DNA from: Candidatus Kaiserbacteria bacterium | GTDB taxonomy: Bacteria > Patescibacteriota > Minisyncoccia > Phycocordibacterales > Phycocordibacteraceae | Assembly: GCA_029288835.1 (NCBI GenBank) | Contig: JARIGN010000002.1 | Location: forward strand, 1 to 54,217 | Direction: 5' to 3' | Length of the DNA: 54,217 nucleotides | Shown: one piece after another, positions 2,338 to 22,447 of the stretch | Position numbering within the stretch: the first letter of the stretch is position 1 | Layout: every line of letters begins with the position of its first letter | Made by a program: the position numbers and the translations under genes | Notes under the pieces: model-generated | The model's input: only the letters and a program-made list of their open reading frames with translations | What the model was told of the DNA's origin: nothing | The model's database searches: none

Positions 2338-3441
2338 TTAAAAGTGGAGACCTATCTGATAAATCGGAAGCAGGATACCGAGGCAGAGGAAGGCGACAAT
2401 ACAGCCAATGACGAGGATGAGTGCAGGCTCAAGAAAGGCAGGAATATTCCGCGAGGCGGCATCTACCTTCCCTTCATAAAGCGTGCCCACTTTAATAAAG
2501 GTATCGGAAAGCGTGCCCGACTTTTCGGCTGCTACGACCATCTGCCGAACCGCACTGGGAAGCACCGAGGAAAGGTTTTTATATTCTGCAAAAAGTTTTT
2601 GGAACGAATATCCTTCATCGATACGGTCACCCATGTATTCAAAAAGTGACGCGTAGTTTTTGAAGGTGGTCGTGGTGGGAAGAATATCGAAGATAATCGG
2701 AAGCGGCGTGCCTGCCTGGATCATCGTCCCGACGATAAACCCGAAGCGCGAAATCTCCGTACTGCGAATGAGTTCCTTAAAGAGCGGCAGATGGAAGAGC
2801 ACCGTATGGCCGATGAAGCGCGTTTTGGGAAACGAAAAAAGGAAATAAAAGAGCGAGAGAAACACAAGCACGAAGGCAGGAATGAAGATATAGCCAAAAC
2901 GCTGCAAAAAACTTCCCGTGCTTATGATGATGCGGGTGCTGAGCGGGAGCGGCACGTTAAAGGCCGTGAAGAAGGTGGCAATCTGCGGAAGGACATACCA
3001 GGCCGTGCCGATTCCCACCACGAGCGCGATGATCAACACAAAGCTTGAGTACGCGAGCGCAGAGCGAATACGCGAGCGGAACTGAGCCTCTTTTTCATTT
3101 TGTGCTGCGGCAATCATAAGGTTTTTTGAAAGTTGCCCGGAGGTCTCGCCAATCGTGACGAGCGCAAGCGTATAGGAATTCACCACGCCTGCCTTCTCAA
3201 GTGCCTTGGAGAAAGACATGCCTTCATCCACATCCTGCAAAATTTCCTTCACCACGGAGCGCATGCGTCCTGGATGTAGCTCTTCGTATACGGAAGCAAG
3301 CGCCGTCTCAATATTCATTCCCGCTGAAACAAGGATGGAAAGATTTTGTATGAAAAAACGGGATTCATTTTGGAGACCAAACGAGCGTGCCTGTAAAAAA
3401 GCCTTTCGCTTGAGGGTGAGCGGGTGAGCAGTGTTCTCCAT
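2338..3441 (-). CDS. pilC: Type IV pilus/T2SS platform protein (PilC/GspF), locus 1
   Basis: Two GspF repeats (GETSGQL; AEKSGTL), 'RIRSALAY', 'LEPALI' and terminal 'LLPIY'. Confidence 0.92.
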   Translation of the reverse strand: MENTAHPLTLKRKAFLQARSFGLQNESRFFIQNLSILVSAGMNIETALASVYEELHPGRMRSVVKEILQDVDEGMSFSKALEKAGVVNSYTLALVTIGETSGQLSKNLMIAAAQNEKEAQFRSRIRSALAYSSFVLIIALVVGIGTAWYVLPQIATFFTAFNVPLPLSTRIIISTGSFLQRFGYIFIPAFVLVFLSLFYFLFSFPKTRFIGHTVLFHLPLFKELIRSTEISRFGFIVGTMIQAGTPLPIIFDILPTTTTFKNYASLFEYMGDRIDEGYSFQKLFAEYKNLSSVLPSAVRQMVVAAEKSGTLSDTFIKVGTLYEGKVDAASRNIPAFLEPALILVIGCIVAFLCLGILLPIYQIGLHF

Positions 3442-17739: not shown

Positions 17740-19254
17740 TTAGAGCGTTTCGCCGGTAACGGCAGCACCTATTGTGAACAGGAGGTCTTCCGCGCCTTTT
17801 GGTGCCGTGAAATGAATGCCTGTTGGGAGTTCTTTTCCTTCTCTGCTGACCATGCCCATTGGTACGGAAAGTGCCGGCATACCGGTGAGGTTTGCGGTGA
17901 CAGTGAAGATATCTTCAAGGTACATAGAGACCGGGTCACTCTTTTCGCCAAAGACAAAGGCAGGAGAAGGGGTCGTTGGGAATGCGATGACGTCAACGTT
18001 TTTAAATGCCTCATCATATTCTTTCGTGAGGACGGCACGCGCTGCATCGGCTTTACGATAGTATGCGTCGATGTAGCCTGAAGAAAGCACAAAGGTGCCA
18101 AGCAGGATGCGGCGCGTCGTCTCTTCGCCGAAGCCTTCCGTACGCGTTTCGACATAGTCATCAAGGAGCGACTTTCCGCGCTTCGCAAGGCCGTAGCGCA
18201 TCCCATCAAAGCGAGCGAGGTTTGCGGACGCTTCCGCGGGCTGGATTACATAGTACACGGCGAGCGCATAGGAACTCGTTGGAAGCGAGACATCGAGTAT
18301 TTCGTGCCCTGCGCTCTTGAAGGACTCGAGCGTTTTCGTAAAATGCGCAAGCAGGTCTTCATCGACCCCATTCTCAAGGAGATGATATGGCACTCCAATC
18401 CGGAATTTCTTCGGTGCTGCTCCTGCATCTTTCGCTTCAGGCTTTTGGTACGGAGACTTTTTCGGAATGCTCGTCGCATCAAGCGGGTCGTTTCCTTTGA
18501 GCGCATCGAAAATGATTTTTGCATCAGCGACAGACTTCGCGAGTGGACCGCACTGGTCAAGCGAGGATGCGAGCGCGATGAGACCGTTTCGCGAGACTGC
18601 GCCATAGGTAGGCTTAAGACCCACAAGGCCACAATGCGCAGCAGGCTGGCGAATGGAGCCGCCCGTGTCGGTGCCGAGGCTGGCGAGTGCACCATGAGAA
18701 GCGACTGCGGCGGCGGAGCCGCCGCTTGAGCCTCCCGGCACGCGCGTCGTGTCATAGGGGTTTTTAGTTTTTCCAAAGGCCGAGTGCTCTGTGGAGCTGC
18801 CCATAGCAAACTCGTCCATGTTGGTGCGGCCGATGAAGATCGCGTGCTGTGCCTTTAGTTTCTTGATGACCGTCGCATCATAGGTCGCCGTATAGTTTTC
18901 AAGCATTTTAGAAGAAGCGCTCGAGGTGCGCCCTTCAATTAAAATATTATCTTTGATCGCAAGCGGTATGCCGCAAAGAAGCGGAGCCGGTACACCACAA
19001 GCATCACCCGACGCCACGCTTTCAATCTCTGCATCGATAAGTTTTTGCGCTTCTTCTATAGCCGCAAGCGTCTCTGCATCTGGCTCAAGAGTTTCATGAT
19101 TCGAAACGAAAAGCTCGAGGTATGCGTTTAGTTCTTCGTTCTGCTTCTGCGCTGATTGGACGCATGCATCGAAAAGTTCGCGCACCGTGCATTCACGCGC
19201 GCGCAGCGCGCGTGCGGCTTCCGTTATCGTAAGTTCGTTGAGCTTTTTTTCCAT
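17740..19254 (-). CDS. gatA: Asp/Glu-tRNA amidotransferase subunit A
   Basis: IKDNI, TNMDEFAMGSS, GGSSGGSAA, DTGGSIRQPA, RFDGMRYG, MYLEDIFT. Confidence 0.97.
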   Translation of the reverse strand: MEKKLNELTITEAARALRARECTVRELFDACVQSAQKQNEELNAYLELFVSNHETLEPDAETLAAIEEAQKLIDAEIESVASGDACGVPAPLLCGIPLAIKDNILIEGRTSSASSKMLENYTATYDATVIKKLKAQHAIFIGRTNMDEFAMGSSTEHSAFGKTKNPYDTTRVPGGSSGGSAAAVASHGALASLGTDTGGSIRQPAAHCGLVGLKPTYGAVSRNGLIALASSLDQCGPLAKSVADAKIIFDALKGNDPLDATSIPKKSPYQKPEAKDAGAAPKKFRIGVPYHLLENGVDEDLLAHFTKTLESFKSAGHEILDVSLPTSSYALAVYYVIQPAEASANLARFDGMRYGLAKRGKSLLDDYVETRTEGFGEETTRRILLGTFVLSSGYIDAYYRKADAARAVLTKEYDEAFKNVDVIAFPTTPSPAFVFGEKSDPVSMYLEDIFTVTANLTGMPALSVPMGMVSREGKELPTGIHFTAPKGAEDLLFTIGAAVTGETL

Positions 19255-19260
19255 AGAACG

Positions 19261-19548
19261 CTAGTCGTGCGAGATGATCTGCTTCACCGAAAGATAGTCA
19301 CCTTCGCGTGCCGGAAACTGTTCGGCGAGCTTCTCCGTATATTTCCCTTTTTCGTGCGGTTTCCCATCTTCTCGAAACACATTTGTATACGGAAGAAGCG
19401 GTGTTTTTTCAGGCACTTCCAAACTTTCAAGCTGGCCCACATAGCCCAAAATGGCCTCGAATTCCTGGGCGAATTTCTCCAGCTTTTCTTCAGGTACGTT
19501 GATGCGAGCGAGCGCCGCAAGCTTTTTCACCTCCTCCGTATTTACCAT
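19261..19548 (-). CDS. gatC: Asp/Glu-tRNA amidotransferase subunit C
   Basis: EEVKKLAALARI...ILGYVGQL...NVFRED; directly upstream of gatA. Confidence 0.93.
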   Translation of the reverse strand: MVNTEEVKKLAALARINVPEEKLEKFAQEFEAILGYVGQLESLEVPEKTPLLPYTNVFREDGKPHEKGKYTEKLAEQFPAREGDYLSVKQIISHD

Positions 19549-19594
19549 ATTCCCTACTGTATCACACGCCTCTACGTACTGCATCGAAGTAAGT

Positions 19595-19623
19595 TTGACG
19601 ACTTACATTTCTCATACTAAACT
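19595..19623 (+). promoter_or_regulatory. Sigma70-type promoter for a candidate small RNA
   Basis: TTGACG (19595-19600), 17-nt spacer, TAAACT (19618-19623). It points into a structured non-coding stretch with no credible ORF. Confidence 0.65.
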
Positions 19624-19626
19624 TCT

Positions 19627-19700
19627 GGTATGCCCGCTTGGGCACACGTTTTGCCGAGGCGAAAGCCTAGGTTGGCTATCTCGCAAGGGATAGCCTTTAC
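19627..19700 (+). ncRNA. Candidate structured small RNA convergent with the orphan PemK/MazF gene
   Basis: Three hairpins: TGCCC-GCTT-GGGCA; GCC.AGGC-GAAA-GCCT.GGT; GGCTATCTC-GCAA-GGGATAGCC-TTT. The GNRA loops and G-U wobbles only work on the + strand. Confidence 0.6.
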
Positions 19701-19703
19701 GCT

Positions 19704-20093
19704 TTATAGTTCTATAAACTTAACAATTAGTGCTTGTATATTTTTATAGTCAGTTTTAGACACTCTTCCTTTTTTCGTTGATAATCTCTTTTTATCTAAT
19801 ACTCGCAGCTGAAACAGCAGAATGTCATTTATAATTCCCTTCAAATCAATGCTATATCTTTCAGGTGCACGTTGAATCTTTGTAGAAAGTGGGATTCCCC
19901 AAAATAAATTTTGATTTATTTTCTTAAAAATGAGTACAGGTCTGCTAAAATTCGCTCCTGTACCGTCCTGCTCTGAGCCTACATTAACGCCTATCGAACA
20001 CCACCATATTTCTCTTTCAAAAATCGGTAGGTTATTGCGCGCCTCAACAAGGTTCTTTTTGTAGCTATTCCACGCATCGAAATCTTTCGGCAT
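19704..20093 (-). CDS. PemK/MazF-family endoribonuclease toxin, orphan
   Basis: KDFDAWN...EREIWWCSIGVNVGSEQDG...RPVLIFKK...GIPLST...FQLRVLDKKRL...KGRV. AT-richer than its flanks; no adjacent antitoxin ORF. Confidence 0.88.
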   Translation of the reverse strand: MPKDFDAWNSYKKNLVEARNNLPIFEREIWWCSIGVNVGSEQDGTGANFSRPVLIFKKINQNLFWGIPLSTKIQRAPERYSIDLKGIINDILLFQLRVLDKKRLSTKKGRVSKTDYKNIQALIVKFIEL

Positions 20094-20154
20094 CAGCGCA
20101 CTATACGATATAGCGATGAAATAAATATCTATTAGATATAAAGATTTACTGAAA

Positions 20155-20196
20155 GACGTAAATCGATAAAATTACGACGTAAATCGATAAAATTAC
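20155..20196. repeat. Perfect 21-bp tandem duplication
   Basis: GACGTAAATCGATAAAATTAC occurs twice (20155-20175, 20176-20196) between the ligA stop and the toxin promoter. Confidence 0.95.
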
Positions 20197-20203
20197 AGGG
20201 ACG

Positions 20204-22447
<2,244 letters not shown>

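Follow-up and report, generated by a model that had tools for sequence, protein, structure and literature searches.

A PemK/MazF-family toxin gene and a convergent predicted small RNA as a candidate toxin-antitoxin module in Patescibacteria

The toxin gene and the predicted small RNA

The window analysed here is the whole of a 54,217-nt stretch of DNA from a Candidatus Kaiserbacteria bacterium (Patescibacteriota; assembly GCA_029288835.1, contig JARIGN010000002.1, positions 1-54,217, forward strand). Between ligA and gatC it carries a gene for a PemK/MazF-family toxin and, on the opposite strand just past the toxin stop codon, a promoter motif followed by three potential hairpins. An earlier note on this DNA had proposed that these form a module of a toxin and a convergent small RNA (sRNA). 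The features of the candidate module are as follows.

19704..20093, minus strand: PemK/MazF-family toxin gene, 129 aa (Pfam PF02452 match)
20100..20105, minus strand: -10 box TATAGT, 6 nt before the toxin ATG (sequence)
19595..19623, plus strand: predicted sRNA promoter, TTGACG, 17-nt spacer, TAAACT (sequence; motif at the same place in homologues)
19630..19706, plus strand: predicted sRNA of ~77 nt, with hairpin 1, an ACAC single strand, hairpins 2 and 3 and the tail UUUACGCUUUAU (folds; likeness of architecture)
19631-19644, plus strand: hairpin 1, loop GCUU (fold)
19653-19672, plus strand: hairpin 2, loop GAAA (fold)
19673-19694, plus strand: hairpin 3, loop GCAA (fold)

The toxin gene, and the box TATAGT-N6-ATG from which the earlier note had it transcribed without a leader, lie where that note placed them. 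The protein matches the Pfam PemK_toxin family (PF02452) with an E value of 3e-11 and 43.9 bits (cut-off 23.1), and a whole-genome profile search reveals three PemK copies in the source genome. In an AlphaFold2 model built on 72 homologues (mean predicted local distance difference test score 92.9), an N-terminal helix (residues 5-17, KDFDxWN..KK) precedes the MazF barrel. The top Foldseek matches of this model are MazF of Staphylococcus aureus, Bacillus subtilis, Mycobacterium tuberculosis and Escherichia coli (template modelling score 0.68-0.72, E down to 1e-7). Residues G39, E41, R51 and P52 are invariant across the 72 homologues, and S40 and T71 are invariant in an 18-sequence set; the HMMER alignment to PDB chains was partial. 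We take G39, E41, R51 and P52 to be the GSEQ...RP core that holds the MazF catalytic arginine, and the mapping to MazF Arg25/Thr48, by way of the B. subtilis enzyme, is tentative. Because the invariant MazF core residues are kept, the toxin is probably active and in need of control. We infer that the PemK protein is toxic. An NCBIfam scan gave far-sub-threshold matches to MazF and ChpB only. A PADLOC scan matched no defence model, and the protein falls outside the ToxN, AbiQ, CptN and TenpN families. Such proteins carry the public annotation label 'type II ... PemK/MazF family toxin'.

Judged by the position of its -10 box, the toxin mRNA is leaderless. A TAnAAT-like box 6-8 nt before the ATG, with no Shine-Dalgarno sequence, is seen in most of the ~80 printed homologue loci (by eye, uncounted). 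As the mRNAs of the toxin family look leaderless, they would offer no 5' untranslated region (UTR) for an RNA to target, and pairing of the sRNA with a toxin 5' UTR or Shine-Dalgarno sequence was rejected on this ground.

On the opposite strand, the motif TTGACG-N17-TAAACT reported past the toxin stop is present, with TTGACG at 19595-19600 and TAAACT at 19618-19623, and matches the consensus at 9/12 positions. A loose promoter scan gave 4 sites in 1.3 kb against 1.9 expected, so that the motif taken alone is not significant. The three hairpins described earlier, with their GAAA and GCAA loops, are likewise present, at 19631-19694. It had also been argued that G-U pairs, which would be A-C mismatches on the other strand, assign the fold to the plus strand; this is borne out for hairpins 2 and 3, but fails for hairpin 1, which pairs better on the minus strand. 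The tail UUUACGCUUUAU does run from the last hairpin to the toxin stop codon (19704-19706), as had been claimed, but the U run said to end that hairpin is weak. The region 19625-19710 folds on both strands (plus, -35.1 kcal/mol, z -3.0; minus, -32.1 kcal/mol, z -4.1), while the predicted transcript 19630-19708 favours the plus strand (-34.1 kcal/mol, z -3.8, against -28.5 kcal/mol, z -2.6).

An Rfam scan of the window at E≤10 gave two chance-level matches only. On the corresponding element in 12 consensus-like homologue loci Rfam gave no match, the best score being that of istR (25.7 bits against a threshold of 45). snoR101, RefA1 and istR were all rejected as identities because they are sub-threshold. 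Rfam presumably contains a pemK motif; no Rfam family matched at or near its gathering score. The Rfam check suggested in the earlier note therefore leaves the RNA uncatalogued in that database. With a promoter match of 9/12, a minus strand that folds too and an empty Rfam result, the features of the window are unconvincing by themselves.

The start and end of the window sRNA are predicted from the fold and from likeness to two homologue loci, L009 and L021, and to the Campylobacter RNA CJpv3 described below. L009 and L021 share its architecture, namely the promoter position, an extra 5' hairpin, ACAC, two hairpins and a U-poor tail, and L021 also has TCTGGTAT after the -10 box in common with the window. 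The three modules of the source genome (the window module and two paralogues) each have a different RNA, and no second copy of the hairpin element was found in that genome. The first nucleotide of the predicted RNA, 6 nt past the -10 box, is also the start of an open reading frame (ORF) of 39 aa (19630-19749, plus strand), which the homologues do not conserve.

Conservation of the RNA beside toxin homologues

A protein search returned 514 relatives of the toxin, mostly from Patescibacteria, and the homologue set used below consists of 80 loci from species-representative genomes, out of 190 matches. Some of the homologues are annotated as proteins of 170-190 aa with a common SEAEA C-terminal extension (P0006, P0008, P0011, P0027 and others; alignment A1). 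This stretch is probably an annotation artefact, the sRNA gene read through in frame, and it drew attention to nucleotide conservation downstream of the usual stop.

A strict promoter motif, TTGACN-N16-18-TANNNT, antisense and within 260 nt past the toxin (≤260 nt), is present at 62/80 homologue loci. Elsewhere in the same 80 loci there are 73 such sites in 773 kb, a background of 0.025 per 260 nt. The motif is at the expected place in all three modules of the source genome. Nearly all of the 80 loci carry on the antisense strand an element that begins with a promoter motif, TTGACa and TAtACT separated by 16-18 nt. Some 7 nt past TAtACT comes (U)ACA(A/C)AU, followed by a short hairpin, P1, which is often GGC-UUCG-GCC. 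The 3' part consists of a linker, CCGAG, a G+C-rich hairpin, P2, and a U run that overlaps the toxin stop. In the homologue loci, a U run after the last hairpin is found on the antisense strand only.

A covariance model was seeded on four sequences with a structure given by hand and rebuilt from 40 matches; the rebuilt model is referred to as R2. An alignment of 30 RNAs with MAFFT and RNAalifold had ignored structure, giving 3 pairs only, and was replaced by a model-based realignment. R2 matches next to the toxin at 71/80 loci at E≤1 and at 66/80 at E≤0.01, the 40 loci of its training set being amongst those matched. Every full-length match beside a toxin is antisense and directly follows the toxin gene; the few sense matches are partial or upstream. 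Amongst 28 further loci from the genus and order of the window's organism, 26 have an R2 match. When five whole genomes were searched at E≤0.01, 13 of the 15 matches were convergent with, and abutting, a PemK-like gene, and the two exceptions (21.2 and 19.7 bits) are amongst the four weakest matches. Second R2 matches in L012, L040 and L059 each lie beside an extra PemK paralogue. Of 68 loci, 46 have an sRNA whose 3' end runs into that of the toxin ORF, and in a further 20 the two ends are 0-20 nt apart.

In the 40-row alignment, which was fitted to the model and whose pair counts therefore lean towards the structure, 98.5% of cells are paired and 11 of 12 pairs show a compensatory change. None of 500 shuffles reaches the observed pairing values, and slid controls also fall far below them. 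From locus to locus the sequences of the stems vary freely. G-U cells number 8 and A-C cells 0, which indicates that the structure reads on the sRNA strand, in agreement with the promoter and the U run. The earlier note had suggested looking past the stop codons of homologues for covarying hairpins and an antisense promoter; both are found there (71/80 and 62/80 loci, respectively).

Extra tandem RNA units without an extra toxin gene occur at L024:3013-3072, at L035:2956-3008, in L129 (downstream of the toxin) and in L039. The module is also present in metagenome-assembled genomes labelled Rickettsiales, on plasmids of Campylobacterota and on a few viral contigs.

As far as sequence comparison can carry the matter, the toxin-sRNA module is real, and it is the comparison of homologues that decides this. 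At that level it also establishes that the two genes occur together and are conserved, how the RNA is structured and on which strand it lies, that a protein partner is absent, and that the block described below is an insertion.

Absence of a protein antitoxin

No candidate antitoxin ORF lies on the same strand between ligA and gatC, in accordance with the earlier note, and none was found at either of the two paralogues in the source genome. A scan of 150 of the 151 small same-strand ORFs flanking the 80 homologues gave 0 matches to antitoxin families; the named neighbours are GatC, SecE, ribosomal proteins, NUDIX, HIT and similar proteins. A cognate protein antitoxin encoded elsewhere had been raised as an alternative source of control; the source genome (96.6% complete) has no match to the MazE/AbrB domain (PF04014), and its single RHH_1 match sits on another contig. 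A protein partner is thus absent from all the places searched.

A relative on the Campylobacter plasmid pVir

A translated search of plasmids for the toxin identified homologues in Campylobacter, Helicobacter and Nitratiruptor. The homologue on pVir of Campylobacter jejuni 81-176 (tblastn, 35.7% identity over residues 5-116, E 2e-12) is a Pfam PemK member, and the N-terminal FDEWN..KK helix motif is visible in its translation. Its gene (NC_008770, 30634-31038) is annotated as a PemK/MazF toxin, with no annotated partner. On the same plasmid, an sRNA of 77 nt, CJpv3, has been mapped by differential RNA sequencing and Northern blot to the minus strand at 31119-31043, with the orientation '><>' and the entry 'Detected on Northern blot' (Dugar et al., 2013, Table S12). 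CJpv3 is convergent with the toxin gene and ends 5 nt after the toxin stop (31038). Three hairpins form when its own strand is folded (-25.8 kcal/mol, z -3.9), whereas the opposite strand folds poorly (-15.8 kcal/mol).

The pVir locus and the window thus share a PemK toxin with an FDxWN helix and a convergent three-hairpin RNA of ~77 nt at the toxin stop, which in the window is predicted. They differ in that no sequence similarity is detectable between the RNAs (R2 finds nothing in L127), in that the Campylobacter promoter is a -10 box only, and in that the pVir locus is on a plasmid whereas that of the window is a chromosomal insertion. The toxin genes of Helicobacter suis and of the Nitratiruptor plasmid likewise have a -10 box and two or three hairpins after them. 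The window module is best classed with the system known from a single Campylobacter plasmid, as a further member of that kind. The proposal of a toxin with a convergent sRNA is supported by the promoters (62/80), the R2 matches (71/80), the lack of a protein antitoxin and the precedent of CJpv3. No paper on a PemK/MazF toxin with a convergent sRNA in Patescibacteria was found in full-text searches.

Insertion between ligA and gatC

The toxin gene belongs to a minus-strand row that consists of ligA (20204-22420), the toxin (19704-20093), gatC and gatA (17740-19254), ligA and gatC being supported by Pfam. Three further features of the region bear on its origin.

19575..20203, no strand: inserted toxin-plus-sRNA block between ligA and gatC, approximate, ~640 nt (composition; empty sites in relatives)
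19546..19575, minus strand: gatC ATG (19546-19548), -10 box TACAGT (19556-19561) and vestigial ligA 3' end with TGA (19562-19564) (comparison with L118, L123 and L124)
20155..20196, no strand: two perfect tandem copies of a 21-nt unit, downstream of the ligA stop and upstream of the toxin promoter, inside the inserted block (sequence)

The toxin region has 33-40% G+C, against ~50% in the flanks. Six genomes of the same genus have empty sites, in which 15-96 nt separate the stop of ligA from the start of gatC and no sequence of the block is present. Since ligA is directly beside gatC in these relatives, the toxin-plus-RNA block is an insertion. The junction of the relatives, ...GGCG(C/T)GTGATA(C/G)AGT-N6-7-ATG, survives in the window at 19546-19575, and the vestigial ligA end together with TACAGT-N7-ATG places the gatC start at 19548 and not at the ATG of the ORF list at 19584. 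With the old ligA-gatC junction retained, the hairpins belong to the inserted module and not to gat. The earlier statement that they are not a gat leader is therefore upheld, as the junction in relatives lacks this sequence and gatC keeps its own TACAGT-N7-ATG.

A homologue of the toxin is present in only 12/36 genomes of the genus, the best being 50% identical. L011 has the same order, with ligA (380-2428), a toxin (2501-2866, 46% identical) and gatC (3021-3317); this may reflect either an old insertion or a preferred site. In L116, L122 and L126 the ligA-gatC spacer is ~90 nt and is bounded by an inverted repeat, CGTGCCACGCACCAAAAGC ... GCTTTTTGGTGCCGTGG, which is absent where the spacer of relatives is 15-16 nt.

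In L035, L045, L051, L060, L066 and L085 the core of the 21-nt repeat, ATTTTATC, recurs 33-89 nt ahead of the toxin start; the repeat may be an operator or promoter element. Upstream repeats of any kind are found in only 5/83 loci. The 21-nt repeats were considered as a type III-like antitoxin and rejected, because such repeats are not conserved.

Small genomes of 0.6-1.4 Mb contain 2 to 8 matches to the toxin. In genome G001 (~0.6 Mb), four toxin-RNA modules lie head to tail within 4 kb (contig C4, 22-3882). At L019:2204-2258 (plus strand), ~250 nt upstream of a toxin homologue, there is a match to the type III hammerhead ribozyme (46.9 bits; Rfam threshold 48.5). Only 2 loci were found on viral contigs, which gives no evidence for a mainly phage-borne gene. 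As the module is multi-copy, patchy within the genus and inserted in housekeeping rows, it is taken to be a mobile element, one that is tolerated or used by reduced genomes.

Proposed mechanism and comparison with known toxin-antitoxin classes

We read the locus as a small mobile unit of two genes, a toxin and an RNA, that has entered between ligA and gatC. The first gene would encode a leaderless MazF/PemK-family endoribonuclease toxin. The other would produce an RNA of ~77 nt with several hairpins from its own sigma-70-type promoter, transcribed towards the toxin and interlocked at its 3' end with the toxin stop. This sRNA would be the antitoxin. The toxin-sense strand has no U run after the hairpins, and the toxin transcript probably reads through them for this reason; it would then carry a perfect complement of the sRNA. 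The resulting duplex may lower the amount or the translation of the toxin mRNA, as in type I systems.

Antisense action on a read-through toxin transcript is ranked first because the 3' ends are interlocked, the sense strand lacks a U run, the RNAs diverge freely and a relative has been called type I. We consider it the most likely mechanism and give it a probability of about one half; both neutralization and pairing are what we infer from these features. As regards the relative, Shen et al. 2016 (Mol Microbiol 101:909) reportedly describe cjrA/cjpT of C. jejuni pVir. Passages of two papers that cite Shen et al. (2016) assign to pVir a type I system in which the antitoxin is an antisense RNA, CjrA, and describe cjrA as neutralizing cjpT. 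The coordinates of cjrA were sought in the supplement of PMC7826846 and are not given there. In the full-text literature, no text was found that names the family of CjpT.

Several observations weigh against antisense action. The equating of cjpT with the pVir PemK gene, and of cjrA with CJpv3, is our own and tentative. In the window, the -10 box TAAACT and the U tail are weak, R2 misses the RNA at E≤1, and the CCGAG linker, invariant in 30/30 aligned class-A RNAs, is lacking. The overlap of the predicted RNA with the toxin ORF is no more than 3 nt, and antisense action would therefore rely on a predicted 3' UTR of the toxin. In the wider family, cis-complementarity explains neither the single-stranded motifs (5' ACA(A/C)AU and CCGAG) that are conserved although the toxins are only 40-50% identical, nor the free-standing extra RNA units of L024, L035 and L129.

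Antisense control of this kind resembles type I systems in which a convergent RNA overlaps the 3' end of the toxin transcript, such as txpA/RatA and bsrG/SR4 of B. subtilis. These have in common with the PemK module a convergent RNA with its own promoter, a probable overlap with the 3' end of the toxin transcript and the lack of a protein antitoxin. The type I trait of a separately transcribed complementary RNA may be present: promoter, strand and 3' interlock are conserved, and the overlap of the window RNA with the toxin mRNA is predicted. The toxins of those systems are, however, small hydrophobic peptides, whereas that of the window is a 129-aa soluble RNase of the MazF fold, and the RNA of the PemK module has single-stranded motifs that are conserved across distant lineages. 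Type II systems (MazEF, PemIK, Kis-Kid) share the toxin family and fold; they differ from the present module, which has no adjacent protein antitoxin in the window, at the two paralogues or at the 80 homologues, and whose window protein has an extra N-terminal helix and a leaderless mRNA. Type III systems (ToxIN, CptIN, TenpIN) share an endoribonuclease toxin of Kid/MazF-like fold and an RNA antitoxin. Their antitoxins are tandem repeats upstream in the operon that are processed by the toxin, in contrast to the single convergent unit with its own promoter, and the window toxin is a true Pfam PemK member with no match to a PADLOC defence model. The earlier note had concluded that the module fits no known class. 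The mismatches on which it relied stand (no protein for type II, no repeats for type III, no peptide for classic type I), but the conclusion is weakened by the description of pVir cjrA/cjpT as type I in the passages mentioned above.

A serious rival, although we regard it as unlikely, is that the module is the same but the RNA neutralizes the toxin protein directly, as a decoy or pseudo-substrate in the RNA groove of MazF, as in type III. Many MazF enzymes cut at ACA-type sites. A 5' stretch that contains ACA is common in these RNAs and CCGAG is invariant in the 30/30 that were aligned, and cis-antisense action needs neither. RNA units that overlap no toxin gene (L024, L035, L129) also argue for direct binding, as does L034, where a terminator belonging to the toxin precedes the RNA unit. 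The toxin operon lacks the tandem repeats that would be expected of type III, and the toxin is not a member of the ToxN, AbiQ, CptN or TenpN families. The sole studied relative is termed type I in the passages cited. The RNAs differ completely between lineages and amongst the three paralogues, which fits cis specificity equally well as co-evolution. Were direct binding correct, a doubtful idea, the 'orphan type II' PemK toxins would be a large unrecognized toxin-RNA class in which a single-unit, independently transcribed RNA inhibits a MazF-family RNase. The ACA(A/C)AU and CCGAG segments might then sit in the RNA groove of the enzyme, and the module would, just as tentatively, be a MazF counterpart of type III with another gene layout.

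It is rather improbable that the RNA is real and linked to the toxin without being an antitoxin, serving instead to tune expression or to block read-through, with transcriptional interference shielding, for example, downstream genes such as gatC. The toxin would then be put up with or kept in check by other means. Convergent promoters can interfere with each other, the block lies within a housekeeping row and many homologues adjoin genes for SecE, ribosomal proteins or gatC. The abstract of PMC8749433 reports a type II mazEF locus that is fine-tuned by an antisense RNA. Against such a role, the toxin keeps the invariant MazF core and is therefore probably active and in need of control, and no other control element is conserved. 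The pairing of toxin and RNA is, moreover, also kept on plasmids, where addiction is the usual role.

We think it very unlikely that the hairpins of the window are only a terminator, an insulator or a decayed remnant, with no functional RNA here. Both strands fold (minus strand z -4.1), the promoter match is 9/12, the U tail is weak and this copy is not recognized by R2, all of which would fit such a view. A terminator of the toxin gene would call for a U run, which the toxin-sense strand lacks after any hairpin. This reading is further opposed by the strict promoter motif, in place in all three paralogues where 0.025 per site is expected, by an architecture and a length that match those of L009, L021 and CJpv3, and by the intact toxin ORF.

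Least credible is the view that the plus-strand transcript, without a leader, encodes a protein antitoxin of 39 aa (ORF 19630-19749): although the spacing TAAACT-N6-ATG equals the TATAGT-N6-ATG of the toxin, and at 17/65 loci the -10 box is followed 4-10 nt later by some start codon and ≥20 open codons, the ORF is not conserved (L009 and L021, the nearest in architecture, have ATA there) and would run past the predicted terminator, the distance from AUG/UUG to CCGAG varies by non-multiples of three (P1 being 10-14 nt long), and the variable region changes by compensatory pairs and not by codons, so that this reading was rejected on its indel and covariation patterns.

Implications

The breadth of this module in Patescibacteria, an RNA family that is missing from Rfam and the question of mechanism appear, from the full-text searches, not to be in print. 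For annotation, the proteins are publicly named type II toxins, yet on the present evidence their partner is an RNA that belongs to no Rfam family, and annotation at times runs the RNA gene into the toxin ORF, which then gains a spurious C-terminal 'SEAEA' extension. With a toxin gene of ~390 nt and an RNA of ~55-80 nt, this is about the minimal size for a two-part toxin-antidote module, and several copies of it occur in some of the smallest bacterial genomes known. The family offers a concrete test case for the question raised by Makarova et al.: it comes with a covariance model, its promoter is defined and one relative can be cultivated. If direct binding of the toxin by the RNA, the less favoured explanation, were true, a class of MazF-RNA pairs would be spread through Patescibacteria, at 2 to 8 copies per genome of 0.6-1.4 Mb.

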